A stretch of 64,000 bases of DNA from Escherichia phage ELT3. Positions 3,664-46,292 of this stretch are shown in pieces. How positions within the stretch are numbered: position 1 is the first letter of the stretch; each line of letters starts with the position of its first letter. The stretch is from the sequence record PQ368571, one strand, 5' to 3'. The position numbers and the translations under genes are program-made. The notes below the pieces were generated by a model. The model was not told the DNA's origin. It ran no database searches and saw nothing but the letters and a program-made list of their open reading frames with translations.

Positions 3664-3908
3664 AATTAGAACAAGCGATTGTATACTTTGAGATGGGCTA
3701 TGATATTGCTCGTGTGGAGTGGGAAGACGGTGATTTTGTCCGATTGATTGATCTTCCAGAAACAGCTATTGCACTGGTCAAAGTAGAAAACGGCATACAA
3801 CGCAATTACGCGTTTTCTGACGAAGACAAACAAGCCAATGACTGGTACGCTACCTGTTTTCATCATACAGCGTCAAAATGCGATTCAGGCGCGTCTATGC
3901 GCCAATAA
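3660..3908 (+). CDS. hypothetical protein (82 aa)
   Basis: Start overlaps preceding stop (ATGA), suggesting translational coupling. Confidence 0.45.
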   Translation: MKLEQAIVYFEMGYDIARVEWEDGDFVRLIDLPETAIALVKVENGIQRNYAFSDEDKQANDWYATCFHHTASKCDSGASMRQ

Positions 3909-3912
3909 AAAG

Positions 3913-3938
3913 AAGGGGAGGCCGAAAGGCTTCCCCTT
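3913..3938. terminator. Bidirectional intrinsic terminator hairpin between convergent genes
   Basis: aaggggaggccgaaaggcttcccctt flanked by A/T runs on both sides. Confidence 0.55.
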
Positions 3939-3942
3939 TAAG

Positions 3943-4599
3943 TTATCTAATCCTTCCGAGGATTCTGGCAGATTGATTGCAAAGAGTATCTAAATTCTCA
4001 ATGTCAATATCCGGTTTATTCTTCCATGAAATGGCGATACTACCAGAATAGACATTATCGAGATTGAATATAGGACAAGAATACATGAAACCTATATCGA
4101 TATTCTCTAATTTCTTTTCTCTTGATGGAATATACTGGAAATCTTTATCGGTAAAATATGATTTACCTAAAAGATGCCTACGATATTCTTCACTCGTTTT
4201 ATTGATAGGGAATCCGCCTAAATTTTTTTCATCGATTGTGTGTGGTAGCTTTCCTTCATATGCCACCAAATCAACAAAATAGTTTAGGTTTTTCGGACGA
4301 AAACTAAAAACAGCAGAAAAATCGGCATCAGCCGACACATGAACTATCTGTAACTGCTCCTGTGCTGCATTATCAAAATTGCGGTCTTTCTCTACCTGGA
4401 GAATGTGAGCATAAGTCTCATAACGAGTCTCTTTATAAAGCGCAAATAACTCGTTTTTACTATAAACGACAAATGCCAATATGGACAACACGACGGCAGC
4501 AAAAACACGAAGTACGAGCAACTCCGTGCTTTTAGTTGTGAAAATAGCGCGCAGGACATTTGAGATAGCAAAGTCTTTCCCTTTTTCAGAAACTTGCAT
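3943..4599 (-). CDS. t: holin (T4 gene t homolog)
   Basis: 218 aa, same length as T4 T; strong similarity to T4 holin as recalled (e.g. LEQLQIVHVSADADFSAVFSFRPKNLNYFVDLVAYEGKLP, CNQSARILGR); positioned after the tail fibre genes as in T4. Confidence 0.85.
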   Translation of the reverse strand: MQVSEKGKDFAISNVLRAIFTTKSTELLVLRVFAAVVLSILAFVVYSKNELFALYKETRYETYAHILQVEKDRNFDNAAQEQLQIVHVSADADFSAVFSFRPKNLNYFVDLVAYEGKLPHTIDEKNLGGFPINKTSEEYRRHLLGKSYFTDKDFQYIPSREKKLENIDIGFMYSCPIFNLDNVYSGSIAISWKNKPDIDIENLDTLCNQSARILGRIR

Positions 4600-4632
4600 A
4601 TAATGCCCTAAGATAACTATGACAGTGTACTC

Positions 4633-4872
4633 TTATTTAGGTAGTTGACTATCACCGGGTTTATCTTGCTCGTTACTATCTTCCGACTGATCTTTATTAA
4701 ACTCCTTATAAAGTTCTTCCACAAAACGATCATCAATTGGCGTATTGGTATAGGCCGCAAGACGACGAGCGCAATAGAAGAAAATTTTAGTGAGCATCTT
4801 TTCACTAATTAACTTTGACAATAATTTCATTCCGAAATTAGACAAAGCACCAATGACGATATTATAGACCAT
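4633..4872 (-). CDS. small protein with hydrophobic N-terminus and acidic C-terminus, between gene 37 and holin
   Basis: 79-aa ORF; sits where T4 has gene 38 but is far too small and unlike gp38. Confidence 0.35.
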   Translation of the reverse strand: MVYNIVIGALSNFGMKLLSKLISEKMLTKIFFYCARRLAAYTNTPIDDRFVEELYKEFNKDQSEDSNEQDKPGDSQLPK

Positions 4873-4912
4873 AGCCGTTTCTCCTTAGTAGTTCCCTTCC
4901 CTGGGAGTTTCC

Positions 4913-7858
4913 TTAATTCTTTTTAAGTTCCGCTAGTTCAGCTTTAACGGCTTTCAATTCTTCGCTCATTTCCTGAAACGCCTTAATTAAAAGAGCGTTG
5001 ACAGCAGAGTTAGAAATTGTTAAGATCTCTTCTGGCTTATCAGGATCGCCGATCTTAGAAGTTGTTACTGCTTCCGGCAATTCTTTTTCAAGATCCTGAG
5101 CAATAATACCAACTTCATGAGCGATAACAGTGCGGTCCGTCAAAGACTTAACCTTATCGTAGGTGTACACAGTCAAGCGATTAACTTTATCGGTGGCATT
5201 CTCCTTATACTCTTCCTTATTGATTTTAAGGCGAGCATCAGAACGAATATAAACATCGTTAAAGCTACCATTACGGCTTGCCTGGAAGTCACCGCTCGCA
5301 CTATGGTCAAAAGTTGCATCATTAACATGTAGACGCGCCAATGCGTTTGCTATATTTCCACCTGAAACGTGAATACCCATAGCTGCAATGTGGAATTTGC
5401 CCCAATGTGTCGCTTTCCACACGTTATGTGCAGAGTTTTCGGTATTCTGACAATCAACCAATAAGCCAGCAGCACGGTCTCTCCATTGTGTCCAAGCACC
5501 ACCTTGAACTTGTCCGCGAATCAAACCGTTACCAGATCCACTAACAGTAGCACTAGTTCCTAATTGGATCGTCTTATTGCCAAATATCCAATCTTGAGTT
5601 TGTTTTTGACCACGGAAACGAATAACGCCGTTGTCGTCACAATAAATCAAACCCAATTCTAAGCCGTCAGGATCTCTAAACCAGATGTGCTTATTGCCAG
5701 TGCGACGAAACTCAATGTCTGGTCCAGTTATCTTAATATTACCGGAAGTCTCAAAACCCTGAGATTGAACTTTCCCGTTAACATTGAATATAATCTCATT
5801 TGTTCCCGGACCGCCTGGACGTTGGGTATACCAATGCCACCCGCTTTCATCGCCGCATTCAAATATTTGTTTACGACTATCGTTACCCCATACACGTAGA
5901 GTAAACGTAGATGTGGCGGTCCCTTTACCCCATTTAATTTGACCAGCAGATTCCAAATCACCGAAAAATTTAGTTTTAATCGCACCAGTTGATAAAGTAC
6001 GTTCAGTGGTAAAATGTGCGCCCTGACTGTCTTCAATCTGTAGGATGTTATCGCGACCGTTATTGCTATCACCCCAATGGTTAAACCGGAAGTAATCGCG
6101 GGAATTTAATCGCCCAGCGTCGAAAGTCAAATGCCCTTTCTTAATGTAAACGTCATTACTAAAGCGAGCGGCACGAGAAGCACGTTCTAACGTTAATGCT
6201 TCTTCGTTACCATCACCGCCTAATTGAACGTTACCGGAAGTTAAATCATAAATGAATGGACGATAGGCATTCCATCCACCATACTTATCATTTTCAGCAG
6301 TAGAAAGAAGATAAACTTTAGTGCCGTCATTACGCCAGAATGCACCGTAATTACCAAAGATCATACGGTATGCATCAGAGTTAGCGGAATAATATTGACC
6401 ATTGGTATATACAATTTTGGTTGCACCTGTTCTGAAAGATATTTGACCAGATGTTTCTAGAACAGCACTGTTTTGTCCAATATCATTATTCCACACAATA
6501 GCATCACTAGTACCATCCGCATGACCGATATAACCACTACGTTGGTTTTTACCATCACGACGATCCCACCACGCCATATATGCAGCTTGACCAGTCTGGC
6601 GATGTAAAGTCATCGCATTACCACTACCATGCAATTCCATTTTACCAGTAATTACATATCCTTTATAGCTACCAGGTATAGCACTATTAGAATCAACTCT
6701 AAGAACTTCCGTAGAATCTGTAGCACCAGTAGCAAGACGATATACAGCACCCTGAATGGTTTCATGCCAAACCATTTCGTTATAGTTGCTACGGAATTTA
6801 CGAATATATTTTCGTCCAGTACCTCTATCATTACTCATGTGAACAATATCATAACTATTTTGTGTGTTGTCGTCAAAACTCAACACACCTCGTTTGTTTT
6901 CGGTGTTAAAAAGAGTTACCGCGCGACCGCCAATAACATTATCACCAACAGGACGATCAACAACAAAGTCTGGAACGTCATGAACTACCAGATTAACACC
7001 AACACTTTTACCAAATTCAACAATAACGTTATCAGTGTAACGCTGATATTTCACATAGATATCATAGTTATCACCAGAAGTATTAACAGCCAAAACATCA
7101 AATGATTTGTTTGTATTTCGGCGGTATGCAATAACGTTAACACCTTTAGGGCGACCATTTCCACTGCGAATAACAATTTCTACAATATCAACTTGATCGT
7201 ATGCAGTAACGTTATATCCGTTACCACCATGAATACGGAAAAATACGCTAAGACCGTTTTGTGGAATCATTGCAGTTGCTAATTTAAAATAGCCTTCAAC
7301 GATATCACTAGAAGATGTAGCAAGTTTAACGTTCTTAACAAACATGCGGTCAACTTCTTGCTTGCTATAAACGTTCAATTCTCCTGGAGTTGGTTTATCA
7401 CCTTCGTGATATACCTTATAGCTAAATGCTTTTTGACCTTCTTTATTATAGCCATAAGTTTCTACACGCGATCCAGTGTGTCCATACTGGAAAGTAAATC
7501 CTCGACCATGCTGAACACCAGTAGGATGAGGAACGTTTAGCGTTAGTTCTAGAAAACCATCAAGACCATTGGTACGGAAAGCGCCAAAGTAGTTAAGATC
7601 TCGCGCTGTCTGATCTTCCAGATAATTGGCGGTTTTACTTAAAATATAATTATTTCCTTTAACCTTACCTGCCATTGTAACATCGCGGTCATAAACCGGA
7701 GGACAACTTAAATTGATAATAGCACCGGAATCATTTTTAGTAAGAAGATATTGATCCGCAAGGTTGATTGCCAATTCCCCCGGATTCATCGTACTAGCAT
7801 CAGGTTTACGACCTTTAGTGCTAGTGCGTTTAAATTGGATTCTGCTTAAATCTGCCAT
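4913..7858 (-). CDS. 37: long tail fibre distal subunit gp37 with C-terminal intramolecular-chaperone (peptidase S74-like) domain
   Basis: 981 aa; N-terminus MADLSRIQFKRTSTKGRKPDAS...GELAINL resembles T4 gp37 N-terminus; C-terminus has SDARLK...IAQDLEKELPEAV...ALLIKAFQEMSEELKAVKAELAELKK typical of auto-cleaving fibre chaperone domains; synteny 34-35-36-37. Confidence 0.8.
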   Translation of the reverse strand: MADLSRIQFKRTSTKGRKPDASTMNPGELAINLADQYLLTKNDSGAIINLSCPPVYDRDVTMAGKVKGNNYILSKTANYLEDQTARDLNYFGAFRTNGLDGFLELTLNVPHPTGVQHGRGFTFQYGHTGSRVETYGYNKEGQKAFSYKVYHEGDKPTPGELNVYSKQEVDRMFVKNVKLATSSSDIVEGYFKLATAMIPQNGLSVFFRIHGGNGYNVTAYDQVDIVEIVIRSGNGRPKGVNVIAYRRNTNKSFDVLAVNTSGDNYDIYVKYQRYTDNVIVEFGKSVGVNLVVHDVPDFVVDRPVGDNVIGGRAVTLFNTENKRGVLSFDDNTQNSYDIVHMSNDRGTGRKYIRKFRSNYNEMVWHETIQGAVYRLATGATDSTEVLRVDSNSAIPGSYKGYVITGKMELHGSGNAMTLHRQTGQAAYMAWWDRRDGKNQRSGYIGHADGTSDAIVWNNDIGQNSAVLETSGQISFRTGATKIVYTNGQYYSANSDAYRMIFGNYGAFWRNDGTKVYLLSTAENDKYGGWNAYRPFIYDLTSGNVQLGGDGNEEALTLERASRAARFSNDVYIKKGHLTFDAGRLNSRDYFRFNHWGDSNNGRDNILQIEDSQGAHFTTERTLSTGAIKTKFFGDLESAGQIKWGKGTATSTFTLRVWGNDSRKQIFECGDESGWHWYTQRPGGPGTNEIIFNVNGKVQSQGFETSGNIKITGPDIEFRRTGNKHIWFRDPDGLELGLIYCDDNGVIRFRGQKQTQDWIFGNKTIQLGTSATVSGSGNGLIRGQVQGGAWTQWRDRAAGLLVDCQNTENSAHNVWKATHWGKFHIAAMGIHVSGGNIANALARLHVNDATFDHSASGDFQASRNGSFNDVYIRSDARLKINKEEYKENATDKVNRLTVYTYDKVKSLTDRTVIAHEVGIIAQDLEKELPEAVTTSKIGDPDKPEEILTISNSAVNALLIKAFQEMSEELKAVKAELAELKKN

Positions 7859-7904
7859 TTTATAAAATCCTTAAACGGTTATTAGAATAATATTATTTAG
7901 AAAA

Positions 7905-7923
7905 GCGGGGAGATAATCCCCGC
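7905..7923 (-). terminator. Stem-loop between genes 36 and 37 (weak U-tract)
   Basis: gcggggagataatccccgc hairpin. Confidence 0.3.
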
Positions 7924-7928
7924 TAAAA

Positions 7929-9419
7929 TTAGAAAGTACCAAAATCAATCACCGCATTAAGTGGAACCGCTCCAACATCAGCCGGAGTAGGTTTATTACC
8001 TTCATGATAAAGCTGATATCGGTCCACGGTTTGAGTATTGTTTCGAGAACGGAAAAACACGACCTTTGAGTCGTGGGTGATCCCCAGCTTTTCGGTCCCT
8101 TTAATATCACTAATACGGTGAATCATAGCAGTACCATCAGCACTATTTAACCCGGCATAGTAGTTATCACCATTATATGCACCTCTAGCCGTTCTAACAC
8201 CGTTTACAGCCGGAACAGTTAACGGTCCTGTCATGGTATCGCCAGTGACGTTAACATAGCGAATATCTGCTAATTTACGGTGATCTACATAGTTCCATGC
8301 AGTCCATGATTCATTAGAACACGAACGCCAGCACATCGGATGGTCAATAGATTCAGGATAATACACCTGAACAATTCGACGAGTACCAACAGCATCTTCT
8401 GGGCGATATACCATCAAAACGCCGTTATAATAGCTATCAGACGGTTTATTAGTACCCGACCCAGCATTTTCCACACGATAGATACCGCGATTAATAAGAG
8501 TGTTCCAATCAACGTTTCCAATGATGGTTGGATTTGCCACCATTGATTTTCTCTCAAAGTAGCTCAAACGAACCAATTCATTAGGACCAACAGGATCGTT
8601 TGTCGCCAACATTCTAGGCGCTTGCAAGTTACCTTCCATAATATCACCAGCACGTTTAACCTGTGCATCATTGGTGACATTACCTAGTCCAACATCGGCT
8701 TTAGTTGGTTTATTGTTGGTGTGATAAAAACGACCTTCTTTGCCATTAACAAAAATGGTAGGCTCATCTTTACTTCGGAAGACCAACGTGTCAAGAACGT
8801 TACCATAATAGATCTTAGTCGCATCAAAATTAATTAAATCACGTTCCCTTGCAATTAATTTAGAATCAACCGATAGTTTAACAGTGACAGTGTTTAAATT
8901 ATACGTTCCTGAGAGAGTATCACCGCGACGGGAAACTAAATCCAAATCATTATTCGTTGGTTTATTAACAGGGCTATAGACTCGTTGACCTGTGTCTTTA
9001 ATGGTTGCCCCTTCGATAGTCCCTTTAGACTTAAATTCGCCCGTTGTGGTGTCAATATACGCCATGATAACGCCATCACGGGCATTAACAAAGCCAATTG
9101 ACTTCCATGAATGCAAACCCCAGCTTACACCGTCAAAATTAGCAGCATCGCTCTGTCCTTTAAAAATACCGTTCTTTTTGGTTTCTCCAGCCGATGCACT
9201 ACCTACGCTTAAACCTTCCTCAAAATGAACTTGCTTTTGAAATGTACCACCTTCGGATGCACTAACAGCATCAAAATCGGTAGCCAACGGTTTATCAAAA
9301 GCGGTATAGATTTTATGACCTTTGTAGAAAAGCTGATCCCCCGCTGGCTGGATCGTCAAGTTTCCTTGCGTCCAAATGGGAGATCCACCTACAGTAGATC
9401 CATATTTCAAATCTGCCAT
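7929..9419 (-). CDS. 36: long tail fibre hinge/distal connector gp36 (extended, 496 aa)
   Basis: N-terminus MADLKYGSTVGGSPIWTQGN matches T4 gp36 N-terminus as recalled; synteny. Confidence 0.75.
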   Translation of the reverse strand: MADLKYGSTVGGSPIWTQGNLTIQPAGDQLFYKGHKIYTAFDKPLATDFDAVSASEGGTFQKQVHFEEGLSVGSASAGETKKNGIFKGQSDAANFDGVSWGLHSWKSIGFVNARDGVIMAYIDTTTGEFKSKGTIEGATIKDTGQRVYSPVNKPTNNDLDLVSRRGDTLSGTYNLNTVTVKLSVDSKLIARERDLINFDATKIYYGNVLDTLVFRSKDEPTIFVNGKEGRFYHTNNKPTKADVGLGNVTNDAQVKRAGDIMEGNLQAPRMLATNDPVGPNELVRLSYFERKSMVANPTIIGNVDWNTLINRGIYRVENAGSGTNKPSDSYYNGVLMVYRPEDAVGTRRIVQVYYPESIDHPMCWRSCSNESWTAWNYVDHRKLADIRYVNVTGDTMTGPLTVPAVNGVRTARGAYNGDNYYAGLNSADGTAMIHRISDIKGTEKLGITHDSKVVFFRSRNNTQTVDRYQLYHEGNKPTPADVGAVPLNAVIDFGTF

Positions 9420-9452
9420 AAAGTAACCTCAAAAATTAGTTATAGTTCCGAG

Positions 9453-9460
9453 TATTTATA
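9453..9460 (-). promoter_or_regulatory. T4-type late promoter TATAAATA upstream of gene 36
   Basis: Minus-strand TATAAATA about 34 nt upstream of the ATG at 9419. Confidence 0.6.
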
Positions 9461-9581
9461 GAATGTTAACAAAATATCGCTTCGCGACGTGCCGTAGGCA
9501 CTGACTAATTTTTAACCGAAACAAATTTTCTATTATTCTAAAGATCTTTCTTCGTTTTGGTTACATTTTAACCAACTGTAT

Positions 9582-14563: not shown

Positions 14564-14571
14564 TATTTATA
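14564..14571 (-). promoter_or_regulatory. T4-type late promoter TATAAATA upstream of gene 34
   Basis: Minus-strand TATAAATA about 29 nt upstream of the ATG at 14535. Confidence 0.6.
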
Positions 14572-17633: not shown

Positions 17634-18608
17634 ATGAACATGTTTCGTCGTCAAGATTCTTCCAAACTGCAAGCTCAACTGGCCGCACTGAAAGGTGGCA
17701 ACGGTTTCTCCAAAGAAGATCCGAAAGAGTGGAAGATTAAGACTGATGCAGCAGGTAACGGTGAAGCCCTGATTCGCTTCCTGCCGTCTAAGACAGAAGA
17801 CGGTCTGCCGATTGTGAAACTGGTAAACCATTCCTTCAAAGTTAATGGCAAATGGTATTGGGAAAACTGCTCCAGCACCCACGGTGATTTTGATTCTTGC
17901 CCTGTGTGCAAATATATTAACGAAAAAGACCTGTACAATACCGATAAAACCGAATGGCAACTGATTAAGCGTAAAGCCTCTTACTACGCAAATATTCTGG
18001 TACTGAAAGATCCTCAAGCACCAGAAAATGAAGGTAAGGTATTCAAATTCCGCTTCGGTCAGAAAATTTATGATAAGATCGTTGCAATGGTGAACGTGAA
18101 TACCGACATGGGCGAAGTTCCGGTCGATGTAACTTGTGTGTTCTCCGGTGCTAACTTCCTCCTGAAAGCTAAGAAGGTTGATAAACACCAGAACTATGAT
18201 GATTCTCGTTTCATGCAGCAATCACAGCTTCCGAAAATTGAAGACGAAGCATATCAGAAATATCTGATGGAAAACATGGTTGACCTGAGTGAGATTGTAG
18301 CGCCTAGCCAGTTTAAACCGTTCGATGAACTGGAAACCAAATTTAAGAAAACTATGGGCGTTTCTATGGTAGCTGGTGCTGCGGCTTCCAGTGCTGCGGC
18401 AGCGATTAACAGCCAGCTTGACGATTTTGACGCACAGATGAATGCATTCGATGCTGGTATTAACGCAGCTAGCACTGTAGTTGGTATTAACGCAGCTAGC
18501 ACGGCGTTAGATTCTTCCGCTGATGACCTGATGGCATCGCTGGATCTGGGTGGCGGTACTTCCTCCGCTTCTGATCTGGATGATCTGGACTCTCTGTTAG
18601 CGATGTAA
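17634..18608 (+). CDS. 32: single-stranded DNA-binding protein gp32
   Basis: 324 aa; strong similarity to T4 gp32 as recalled ([52 protein letters not shown], acidic C-terminal tail). Confidence 0.92.
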
Positions 18609-18618
18609 TGAATTTTAC

Positions 18619-18645
18619 AGCCTCCCTTCGGGGAGGCTTTTTTAT
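18619..18645 (+). terminator. Intrinsic terminator after gene 32
   Basis: cctcccttcggggagg hairpin followed by a T-run. Confidence 0.7.
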
Positions 18646-18670
18646 TACCTAAAAATTTATGAAAAATGTG

Positions 18671-18698
18671 TTGACATGTTGGCGAGGTAATGTATAAT
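18671..18698 (+). promoter_or_regulatory. Sigma70-like early promoter (TTGACA-N16-TATAAT)
   Basis: -35 at 18671-18676, -10 at 18693-18698. Confidence 0.5.
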
Positions 18699-18734
18699 GA
18701 ACTAATCGAAACAACGGAGGATTAACAATGTTTT

Positions 18735-19058
18735 TTGAATGCTACCCTTTCCCAGAAAAGTGATAAAATCGAACTTCTGTATGTCATTGCTGATGTGGAC
18801 GTACAACGAAGAAATATAGATTTAAAAATTCACAAATATTATAATATGAGCGAATATCATGAAATCGAGATCCCACATAGTGTGTATCCTGCATTATTGT
18901 TAGGAAAAGGAAATCTAAGTGAATATTCTTTGAAAGTCATCAAAGATTCTAAATCAATGCTTGCTCATATGGAAAAAGATTTTCTTGATGAAGTTTCCGC
19001 GCTAGTTATTAAACTGAAAGAAGAAACAGCACCGCTTTTCATGGAACAAAAAGGTTGA
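18735..19058 (+). CDS. hypothetical protein (107 aa); start ambiguous (TTG start, or ATG at 18728 in another frame across a T6 run)
   Basis: RBS GGAGG precedes ATG at 18728, which is followed by TTTTTT; the long ORF is in the adjacent frame. Confidence 0.4.
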   Translation: MNATLSQKSDKIELLYVIADVDVQRRNIDLKIHKYYNMSEYHEIEIPHSVYPALLLGKGNLSEYSLKVIKDSKSMLAHMEKDFLDEVSALVIKLKEETAPLFMEQKG

Positions 19059-19082
19059 CAGCGTAACGCAATAGTGTATAAT
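19055..19082 (+). promoter_or_regulatory. Sigma70-like early promoter (TTGACA-N16-TATAAT)
   Basis: -35 at 19055-19060, -10 at 19077-19082. Confidence 0.5.
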
Positions 19083-19113
19083 ACAAACATCAAAACAAAG
19101 AGAGGATTATATT

Positions 19114-19443
19114 ATGTGGACTGTAGAACAAATCGTAGATGAAAAAGTAAGTATTATCTCATGCGGCACTATTGAAGAATGCCTTAAAGCCGCTAACCGT
19201 GAATGTATTACGGTTTATGAAGCCCGTCGCGGTGATGGTACTGTGTTAACCAGCGACTATCGATATGAACCAAAAATGATTACCTTTCGTTTTTGGGAAC
19301 ATGGTGTTAATGTTGGGGTATCTCACTTAAAACGTTTTCGTGATTATTCAGACCGTTATTTCATCACACCGGATAACGGTCAAGAATTTAAGACAGCAAT
19401 CACAGAAGAAAATGTAAACGAAAACTATTTCAAACTGATTTGA
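19114..19443 (+). CDS. hypothetical protein (109 aa)
   Basis: ORF with RBS GAGAGGA; lies between gene 32 and frd. Confidence 0.45.
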   Translation: MWTVEQIVDEKVSIISCGTIEECLKAANRECITVYEARRGDGTVLTSDYRYEPKMITFRFWEHGVNVGVSHLKRFRDYSDRYFITPDNGQEFKTAITEENVNENYFKLI

Positions 19444-19458
19444 TGGGAGATTTATATT

Positions 19459-20028
19459 ATGATTCAATGTGTATTTGCGATCGGTGACACTAAAATGTCA
19501 GATGAAAATTGGGCTTTTGGTTTTAAAGGCGGTTTACCGTGGGGACGTCCAATCAAAAAGGACATGGAAAACTTTAAAATGCGCACTATGGGAGATGTTG
19601 ATTTTGCGGCGGTTGTAATGGGACGTAATACCTTTGAAAGTCTGCCTAAATCACTGGAAGGTCGTCTTAATGTGGTTATTAGCACCGATACCAGCAAGCC
19701 AGAACCGAAAGCTAAAAACGGCGACCAACCTGATGTGTATACTGGAATTGAATTGAAGGATCTGTTAAAAGTCCTGGAGAAAACGCAAGGTTTGGTAAGT
19801 GTTATCGGTGGACCTTCCCTGATTGAAAAAGCGGTTGACTTTGCGGACCGTATTGTGTTAACGTATGTTCAACGTTCAGGGATCAACGATCCATTTGAAT
19901 ATGATGTTGGTATCTCTAAGGAAATGATTCAGGAATTGTATTTTGACTTTGTAACCAAAGAAGAACATAATTACTTCCTTGATAATTACCTGATCAGCGA
20001 ACAAATTTTAGAACGTAAGAAGGCGTAA
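19459..20028 (+). CDS. frd: dihydrofolate reductase
   Basis: 189 aa; DHFR-like motifs (GLPW, VVMGR.TFESLP, VIGG); immediately upstream of td as in T4. Confidence 0.75.
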   Translation: MIQCVFAIGDTKMSDENWAFGFKGGLPWGRPIKKDMENFKMRTMGDVDFAAVVMGRNTFESLPKSLEGRLNVVISTDTSKPEPKAKNGDQPDVYTGIELKDLLKVLEKTQGLVSVIGGPSLIEKAVDFADRIVLTYVQRSGINDPFEYDVGISKEMIQELYFDFVTKEEHNYFLDNYLISEQILERKKA

Positions 20029-45359: not shown

Positions 45360-46292
45360 TCAGAACCAGTTAGTGACAGTATTCACCACACGCCCACCAA
45401 CGCCATTTAGACGCGATAAAGCATTACCAGCAGCAGATAACCCACTATCAAGTAAATTATTGCCGAAAGTGTTTGTTATTGCGTTTATTGCCTTATCCTC
45501 AATCCATTCTCGCGCGGCTTGCTCTCCTACAGCACCAGTTTGCATAGAACGATATGCGAAAGTAACATCGAATGTTGTAATTTCGTTGTTGTTTTCATAG
45601 GTTAATTCCGGTGCACTCACACCAACAGGAACACAACCATTAAACATCATGATCGTGTGAGGAACTCCCATTCGGTTATGTAAGTTGACCTGAATATCTG
45701 CTTCAACGTCAACAGGAAGCGCACGAAGCCCTGTAACGGGGTCTTCTACTGAGTTAACCCAATCCTGCATTGCTCGATAGTTTGATGCGCTAGAGTCCAT
45801 TCTAAAGCTAAATACAAGCGGATCGAAATCACGTCCGGTAATTCGAATGTTTGGCGCATTGTGGTTACGGTCCATTTCATAATTCAATCTGTTTTCTGGA
45901 ACCTTAACAGCATACACCAGAAGACCGCTTGTCTTATATGCCATATTGAACCAGTCAAGCGCATATGTACCAACATCAAATTGCCCCAGAAGAGATTGAA
46001 CTACGCGGGATGACATTGCACCTAAAAGATACTTTTTGACACCAGATGAATCAACAGCACGCCTAACACCCTGTACAGCAAGATTTGTTAATGCGTCAGT
46101 ATAATCACCACGAGTAATCCCGAAATAGTCATTTAATGCATTTGGTATAATATCATATACCGCACCGCCCATACTTTCTAGGATCGCTTGTGTCTTATTA
46201 CTTGGAGTGGTGGCAAATGCCACGCTGAATAAGTTAGATCGCTGAAAGTCAAGGTTAGCGGCTTGTTCGTTAAAGTCATTTAAATCAAACAT
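45360..46292 (-). CDS. 54: baseplate tail-tube initiator gp54
   Basis: 310 aa; synteny (alt-54-48-29-28-27-51) and similarity to T4 gp54 as recalled. Confidence 0.75.
   Translation of the reverse strand: MFDLNDFNEQAANLDFQRSNLFSVAFATTPSNKTQAILESMGGAVYDIIPNALNDYFGITRGDYTDALTNLAVQGVRRAVDSSGVKKYLLGAMSSRVVQSLLGQFDVGTYALDWFNMAYKTSGLLVYAVKVPENRLNYEMDRNHNAPNIRITGRDFDPLVFSFRMDSSASNYRAMQDWVNSVEDPVTGLRALPVDVEADIQVNLHNRMGVPHTIMMFNGCVPVGVSAPELTYENNNEITTFDVTFAYRSMQTGAVGEQAAREWIEDKAINAITNTFGNNLLDSGLSAAGNALSRLNGVGGRVVNTVTNWF

Follow-up and report, generated by a model that had tools for sequence, protein, structure and literature searches.

In the 64-kb stretch of the Escherichia phage ELT3 genome analysed here (the window), the fibre genes most probably encode a T2/T6/S16-type distal end of the long tail fibre (probability roughly 0.88), set in a phage that is itself an RB49-like member of Krischvirus. 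The domain identity, catalytic motif and fold of the gp37 C-terminus, the gene order around it and the distant gene 38 of relatives were all observed. The fibre and holin region (positions 3900-9500, 5.6 kb) shares 91-96% nucleotide identity with RB49 and E26, and its order along the minus strand, i.e., genes 36 and 37, a 79-aa ORF (ORF79) and t, matches that of RB49-type phages. The ORF list and Pfam confirm the initial annotation in that gene 37 is followed only by ORF79 and the holin gene. The locus comprises:

9453..9460, minus strand: T4-type late promoter TATAAATA upstream of gene 36 (pattern search)
7929..9419, minus strand: gene 36, distal fibre connector, 496 aa (full-length match to phrog_16472; RB49 annotation)
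4913..7858, minus strand: gene 37, distal subunit precursor of the long tail fibre, 981 aa plus stop (ORF list; phrog_1699, 'long tail fiber protein distal subunit', E 8.9e-184)
4633..4872, minus strand: ORF79, homologue of RB49 ORF251w/Dc5, in the usual gene 38 slot (phrog_402, PF26925)
3943..4599, minus strand: holin gene t (Pfam Phage_holin_T, E 4.5e-61; phrog_860)

The promoter is the closest exact T4-type late match upstream of gene 37, ORF79 and t, and genes 36, 37, ORF79 and t are probably co-transcribed from it. Searching NCBIfam with ORF79, gp36 and gp37 returned no match.

Within gp37, the following parts were distinguished:

6248..6583, minus strand: Gp34_trimer-like shaft domain, aa 426-537 (Pfam PF21446, E 2.7e-37; PDB phmmer to T4 gp34 structures 4uxe and 5nxh)
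5243..7858, minus strand: predicted mature gp37, aa 1-872, with the putative cut between R872 and S873 (cleavage-site alignment)
5243..5638, minus strand: distal tip of the mature protein, aa 741-872, where gp38 is predicted to dock (homology to T2-type gp37 C-termini)
4916..5242, minus strand: Peptidase_S74 intramolecular chaperone (IMC), aa 873-981, predicted to be removed on maturation (Pfam PF13884, S16 phmmer, AF2/Foldseek)
5225..5242, minus strand: catalytic motif S873-D-A-R-L-K878, Ser nucleophile with Lys at +5 (alignment; T5 pb1 spacing)
4919..5011, minus strand: long C-terminal helix of the chaperone, aa 950-980, expected to form a trimeric coiled coil (model helix H210-240, pLDDT about 90)

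The PF13884 profile matched residues 873-932 of gp37 over model positions 1-58 (E 1.5e-11) with 44.8 bits, well above the curated cut-off of 22 bits, and model position 1 falls on Ser873. The chaperone occupies the extreme C-terminus (residues 873-981 of 981), and the sequence before it gave matches to fibre families and to the gp34 trimerisation domain. The S16 gp37 construct 6F45_A matches across the chaperone by phmmer (E 2e-4), and within Krischvirus the chaperone is 97-100% identical. Profile, motif and fold uphold the original proposal that gp37 ends in an auto-cleaving S74-type IMC, with the cleavage itself predicted. Its assignment to the last ~130 residues needs adjustment: the 135-aa stretch first named (aa 847-981) does match Peptidase_S74 (E 7.6e-13) and contains the chaperone, but the chaperone proper is the last 109 residues, and the longer stretch takes in 26 residues of the mature tip.

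The motif SDARLK covers residues 873-878, with the Ser codon at 5240-5242 and the Lys codon at 5225-5227. An alignment of 24 homologous sequences shows no variation at its S, D, R, L and K, and the spacing of Ser873 and Lys878 equals that of the catalytic pair Ser1264/Lys1269 of T5 pb1 (PMC4690869). The sequence DVYIR^SDARLKI aligns with the published cleavage site of S16 gp37, DLNVS^SDRRIKK (PMC7917993), and with DVYIR^SDGRLKI of fPS phages. On the strength of these alignments, gp37 is predicted to cleave itself at R872-S873.

We modelled aa 741-981 as a monomer using AF2. The chaperone part (pLDDT 76-93) leads from a mixed alpha/beta region into a long helix at the C-terminus, as in solved IMCs. 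The structural match to IMC domains was found with Foldseek: the top 11 hits of the model were 7DC3, 3GW6 and 3GUD (probability 0.96-1.0), and all matches up to E=0.04 were IMC/ICA structures, the next one having E=0.24. The tip was poorly resolved (pLDDT 42-55 over the first 50 residues). Neither 6F45 nor T5 pb1 came up among the Foldseek matches for the tip, as is to be expected when an intertwined trimer is modelled as a monomer.

The same Pfam family includes the endosialidase K1F CIMCD (3GW6), the GA-1 neck appendage IMC (3GUD), the T5 pb1 IMC and the MyRF ICA (7DC3), all of which share with ELT3 gp37 a Ser and a Lys five residues apart. In the endosialidase, GA-1 and T5 phage proteins, however, enzymatic activity or receptor binding resides in the mature protein's own C-terminal domain, whereas a separate adhesin cap is expected in ELT3. 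S16, of the T2/T6 type (PDB 6F45), has both the C-terminal S74 chaperone and the aligned cleavage site in common with ELT3 (PMC7917993). Before the cut, the S16 sequence is not detectably similar to ELT3 by phmmer, whereas other T2-type tips are 56-62% identical. T4 gp37 holds the same position in the fibre and has a homologous shaft (Gp34_trimer-like domain and N-terminal region), but T4 is devoid of an S74 domain and its gp38 is a non-structural chaperone (PMC3157838). The needle tip of T4-type gp37 is folded by the chaperones gp38 and gp57A. ELT3 gp37 gave no Pfam match to the T4-type tip domains gp37_C and gp37_trimer (PF12604, PF20744) and, unlike in T4, no gene 38 stands beside gene 37. 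The presence of an S74 chaperone, which T4 lacks, supports the earlier suggestion of a maturation route different from that of T4. A self-cleaving fibre chaperone is the ordinary design of most T4 relatives and has already been described. The result matters for little beyond correct annotation.

A tblastn search of the whole 64-kb window with RB49 gp38 found nothing at E<=10, and a scan of the window for glycine-rich ORFs likewise revealed no gp38. The ORF list, Pfam and tblastn thus establish as real both the gene order (37, small ORF, t) and the lack of gene 38 in the window. A T2-type gp38 gene is nevertheless present in RB49, E26, 011D4, Whisky, SSG23, Phi1, JSE, ECD7, Sf20, Makalu and others, i.e., in every close relative sampled. 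In RB49, gene 38 lies at 45367-46143 and gene 37 at 151717-154656; in E26 they lie at 45.5 kb and 151.6 kb. The resulting distance of ~105 kb, taken from these two genomes in which both positions were read, sets the RB49-like phages apart from the S16/T2/T6 type. Trojet et al. described the displaced gene 38 and the small ORF in its place (PMC3157838); RB49, Phi1 and JSE have the same 36-37-small ORF-t order, a gp37 of 979-981 aa and a displaced gene 38. In relatives, gp38 carries polyglycine motifs as well as a docking domain at its N-terminus, and among the Krischvirus sampled the N-domain is 98-100% identical, with both N-terminal tryptophans kept. Judged by these relatives, the ELT3 genome itself probably carries gene 38, at a locus that by synteny would lie outside the window. 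The initial annotation was therefore right that the window holds no gene 38, but a phage that lacks the gene is unsupported, since all sampled close relatives carry it far away: absence from a window or from the usual slot is not absence from the genome. RB49ORF143w (279 aa, encoded between genes 8 and 9), considered as a gp38 candidate, was ruled out as a methyltransferase.

These observations suggest the following maturation route. gp37 would be synthesised as a 981-aa precursor, whose last 109 residues (S873-N981) would make the fibre trimerise and fold, starting at its C-terminal end. After correct folding of the trimer, Lys878 would activate Ser873 to cut the R872-S873 bond, and the chaperone would leave. 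The exposed tip of mature gp37 would then dock one copy of the gp38 adhesin via the conserved gp38 N-terminal domain, and receptor specificity would reside in the glycine-rich C-terminal domain of gp38. Gene 38 would have been relocated in the RB49-like lineage to a distant early-region locus and would for that reason fall outside the window. According to Efimov et al. 2022 (PMC9569957), RB49 gp37 bears a self-cleaving chaperone and gp38 attaches once the chaperone is removed; the receptor-binding protein is gp38, one monomer of which caps the fibre, and host-range mutations in gp38 are E230K and E230K + Y231S. The idea that receptor specificity resides just upstream of the cut does not agree with these mutants, which map to gp38 and not to the gp37 tip (PMC9569957). 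Predictions of host range should be based on the distant gp38 gene rather than on the gp37 C-terminus, and annotation should mark the final 109 residues of gp37 as a removable chaperone.

A 241-aa query (aa 741-981) showed 56-70% identity to T2-type gp37 C-termini, and in Tequatrovirus CT01 gp38 and then t come directly after a 60% identical tip and IMC module; by analogy with S16, the ELT3 tip is likely to dock gp38 (PMC7917993). ELT3 gp37 is a mosaic unlike that of RB49, with an N-terminal third and tip resembling E26/011D4 and an RB49-like segment at aa 401-450; over aa 751-850 the tip is only 56-72% identical to RB49. Within Krischvirus, aa 751-850 are variable (56-74% identity) and aa 851-872 conserved. 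Given the invariant gp38 N-domain, this variation implies either that the docking surface is only part of the tip or that the tip has an added role.

The variable segment and the window free of gp38 homologues would both fit a fibre without gp38, built like T5 pb1 or endosialidase, in which the receptor-binding tip is formed by the gp37 domain before the cut. T5 pb1 does carry its receptor-binding domain directly before the chaperone (PMC4690869), and siphovirus-like elements carry homologues of the tip and IMC module (56-62% identity) on their fibres, the flanks read there containing no gp38. Such a fibre is nonetheless highly improbable in ELT3: every close relative sampled has gp38 at a locus beyond the window, T2-type tips that precede gp38 are homologous to the ELT3 tip, the RB49 host-range mutations lie in gp38 (PMC9569957), and descriptions of RB49 put gp38 on the cleaved gp37 (PMC9569957, PMC3157838). 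We also consider it improbable, though slightly less so, that specificity is dual, with gp38 capping the fibre as in RB49 and the tip (aa about 750-850) adding a second binding activity, e.g., for O-antigen. Tip type and gp38 type assort independently, SSG23 having a different tip from E26 with the same gp38 type; together with the invariant gp38 N-domain, this means that co-evolution with gp38 does not account for the variation of the tip. Efimov et al. moreover called it counter-intuitive that a small gp38 recognises several O-antigens (PMC9569957). On the other hand, the variation fits ordinary recombinational mosaicism all along gp37, and RB49 mutants gaining growth on strain F17 were altered in gp38 only (PMC9569957). 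That aa about 750-850 form a second receptor-binding site beside gp38, the same module perhaps being the sole receptor binder on siphovirus-like elements without nearby gp38, is a speculative extension and unlikely.

ORF79 occupies the gene 38 slot and could in principle stand in for gp38 as a fibre chaperone or minimal adhesin, an idea that Trojet et al. raised for the small ORFs after gene 37 of Aeh1, not for that of RB49 (PMC3157838). A homologue after the tail needle knob gene of Aeromonas phage LAh_6 would fit such a role, which we regard as very doubtful because relatives have gp38 elsewhere and the ORF79 product is small, helical and acidic-tailed, without fibre-like features. Its AF2 model (pLDDT 57) was too poor for a fold search, and no mention of PF26925, the family precomputed for its homologues, was found in the literature. 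ORF79 is 96-99% identical to its RB49, Phi1 and JSE counterparts. In a Suspvirus, the homologue lies between the holin gene and a tail fibre that has gp37_C/Gp10_C but no S74 domain, and in a Vibrio podophage it directly follows a GH108 endolysin. These contexts led us to reject the notion that ORF79 travels with S74 fibres and indicate a linkage at least as much with lysis genes. ORF79 represents a small family whose members, in unrelated phages, lie next to holins or endolysins and show no tie to S74 fibres; it is possibly lysis-associated.

Four consecutive minus-strand ORFs make up the fibre/holin locus (window 3943-9419; ORF list with Pfam/PHROGs):

7929-9419, minus strand: g36, 496 aa
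4913-7858, minus strand: distal tail-fibre gene g37, 981 aa
4633-4872, minus strand: ORF79, 79 aa
3943-4599, minus strand: holin gene t

The ORF list agrees with the order g37, ORF79, t described in the initial annotation. At the nucleotide level, the 5.6-kb fibre/holin block shares 91-96% identity with Krischvirus phages and matches 117 records, including RB49, E26, 011D4, Phi1, JSE, and Whisky. By synteny with RB49, the window stretches from gene 22 across the fibre genes to a point a few kb past t, corresponding to ~92-160 kb of RB49. RB49 carries a 485-aa hypothetical ORF239c together with ORF238c between g32 and frd (RB49 locus L001, 25004-26838); the counterpart of the ORF239c region, window 18608-19459, comprises only ~850 bp, so the 485-aa ORF is absent. 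The g37 of phage Brandy (L010 1016-3945) is annotated as two overlapping CDSs of 1347 and 1638 nt, which suggests a frameshift or sequencing error in that record.

Using Pfam, we detected Peptidase_S74 (PF13884, "chaperone of endosialidase") on gp37 residues 873-932 (E 1.5e-11, 44.8 bits; gathering score 22 bits), with the match beginning at model position 1. Since the SDARLK motif occupies residues 873-878, the removable domain comprises the last 109 residues. The stretch originally claimed as chaperone, aa 847-981, does contain the C-terminal S74 domain, but 26 of its residues belong to the mature protein. When the last 241 residues of gp37 were aligned with 23 database homologues, S873, D874, R876, L877, K878, and N880 proved invariant. 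The five-residue spacing between serine and lysine is the same as in T5 pb1 (Ser1264, Lys1269), where the S1264A mutant does not cleave itself and activation of the serine by the lysine has been proposed (PMC4690869). A phmmer search of PDB sequences gave an alignment between residues 871-981 and the S16 gp37 construct in entry 6F45 (E 2e-4). In an AlphaFold2 model of residues 741-981, the chaperone part has a pLDDT of 76-93 and ends in a 31-residue helix. Foldseek comparison of this model with the PDB returned exclusively intramolecular chaperones (IMC) up to E=0.04, namely MyRF ICA 7DC3 (E 2.5e-5), endosialidase 3GW6, and the GA-1 appendage 3GUD; the next match had E=0.24. Because of the PF13884 match and the IMC-only Foldseek matches, the S74/IMC assignment held in both the profile and the structure test proposed for it.

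The predicted cut region of the window gp37, DVYIR^SDARLKI, resembles that of T2-like Yersinia phages, DVYIR^SDGRLKI, which has been aligned with the S16 cut, DLNVS^SDRRIKK; in S16 the auto-cleaved chaperone is the last 113 residues (PMC7917993). In T2 and T6, C-terminal proteolytic cleavage of gp37 is followed by capping with gp38 (Trojet et al., 2011, PMC3157838), and in RB49 a gp38 monomer is attached once the gp37 chaperone has been removed (Efimov et al., PMC9569957). The end of the window gp37 is the standard RB49/T2-type fibre maturation module, already described. Domain, motif, fold, and gene neighbourhood are the directly observed parts of the mechanism. By analogy with the family, three chaperone domains would nucleate trimer folding from the C-terminus, and Ser873, activated by Lys878, would cut R872-S873 only in the correctly folded trimer, upon which the chaperone would dissociate. 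As in S16 and RB49, one gp38 would then dock on the exposed gp37 apex via its N-terminal domain, and receptor specificity would reside in its glycine-rich C-terminal domain.

Searching the whole 64-kb window by tblastn with RB49 gp38 yielded no homologue up to E 10, and the initial annotation had taken gene 38 to be missing. RB49, however, encodes a 258-aa gene 38 product ("similar to T2 and RB69 gp38 adhesin") at 45367-46143, distant from its g37 at 151717-154656. Full-length homologues of RB49 gp38 were found by tblastn in close relatives of the window phage: E26, 011D4, PTE-Eco09, SAP, TB34, Whisky, and SSG23 as well as in Phi1, ECD7, Sf20, JSE, Makalu phages, and others; in E26, which is the closest relative across the fibre genes, the two positions are 45.5 kb (g38) and 151.6 kb (g37). 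By synteny, the g38 locus lies tens of kb outside the window, beyond either end, and its absence there therefore says nothing about the genome. The apparent loss probably reflects the limits of the window together with the known displacement of the gene, and the phage very probably carries g38. Tequatrovirus CT01 has a gp37 C-terminus that shares 60% identity with the last 241 residues of the window gp37, with gp38 (Gp38_N + GP38) directly after it and then t. A 303-aa protein from an E. coli assembly (P0022; PF13884 + PF05268 + PF21721) carries the N-terminal domain of gp38 with the first glycine-rich motifs, joined to a gp37 tip end and S74 chaperone; this is a natural gp38::gp37 chimera or else a misassembly.

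Receptor specificity had been placed just upstream of the cut, which is contradicted by published RB49 genetics: mutants that had gained growth on a new host were altered in gp38, one isolate by E230K only and the other by E230K with Y231S (PMC9569957). Variation of the tip fits this picture less neatly. Within Krischvirus the gp37 chaperone is 97-100% identical, whereas the mature tip (aa 751-850) of the window/E26/011D4 type shares 56-74% identity with those of RB49, Whisky, SSG23, or FL37. Tip type is independent of gp38 type, as SSG23 combines the E26 gp38 type with a different tip; the gp38 N-domain is invariant. Among RB49, E26, 011D4, Whisky, and SSG23, this N-domain (aa 1-90) is 98-100% identical, with W7 and W20 kept; the C-terminal part exists in two types, which share 76-79% identity. 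Residues 1-350 and 700-981 of gp37 are 96-100% identical to E26/011D4, whereas aa 401-450 are 100% identical to RB49 and only 34-36% to E26/011D4. The whole of gp37 is a recombination patchwork, and ordinary mosaic recombination is the simplest reading of the tip variation. On this mosaic reading, gp38 docking would rely on those last residues and patches that are conserved. It is improbable that the tip has a second binding role.

With tblastn, the chaperone alone matched 931 phage records, including Krischvirus, T2-type Tequatrovirus, T5-like phages, RB43, Aeromonas and Vibrio T4-likes, and pneumococcal PblB; judged from these matches, the domain is commonplace. Tip+IMC modules 56-62% identical to the window's are also present in the fibres of siphovirus-like elements, including one that resides in a Salmonella chromosome:

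L017 3001-3921: tip+IMC fibre, siphovirus-like element
L020 3001-3852: tip+IMC fibre, siphovirus-like element
L018 4001-5266: tip+IMC fibre, siphovirus-like element

Downstream of these fibres lie three ~100-aa ORFs, a major tail protein, and a tail assembly chaperone; no gp38 was seen in the flanks read.

Exact T4-type late-promoter motifs near the fibre genes precede only g36 and g34, and none was found directly before g37, ORF79, or t:

9453-9460, minus strand: TATAAATA, exact motif match, g36
14564-14571, minus strand: TATAAATA, exact motif match, g34
7909-7921, minus strand: short GC hairpin and T-run after g36

Given this promoter distribution, ORF79 and t may be read through from g36-g37.

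ORF79 is a homologue of RB49 ORF251w/Dc5 (phrog_402; PF26925, precomputed) and belongs to a widespread family of small proteins. Identity within the genus is 96-99%, and more distant homologues, at 29-47% identity, are found in Ounavirinae, Erwinia, Vibrio, and Aeromonas phages:

L014 3992-4189: ORF79 homologue
L015 4004-4213: ORF79 homologue
L016 3992-4192: ORF79 homologue

The Suspvirus mistaenkt homologue sits between tail fibre and holin, the same order as in Krischvirus, and the fibre has gp37_C and Gp10_C domains without S74; a Vibrio podophage has its homologue after a GH108 endolysin, and Aeromonas LAh_6 after a needle-knob gene. These neighbourhoods show that ORF79 is not tied to S74 fibres. 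Lysis genes adjoin the family in two of the three outside contexts, as in the window, and ORF79 may be lysis-associated. The family shares the core F..K....SE....FF..A....T.TP.DD.F, and the structure model predicts, at low confidence, three helices.
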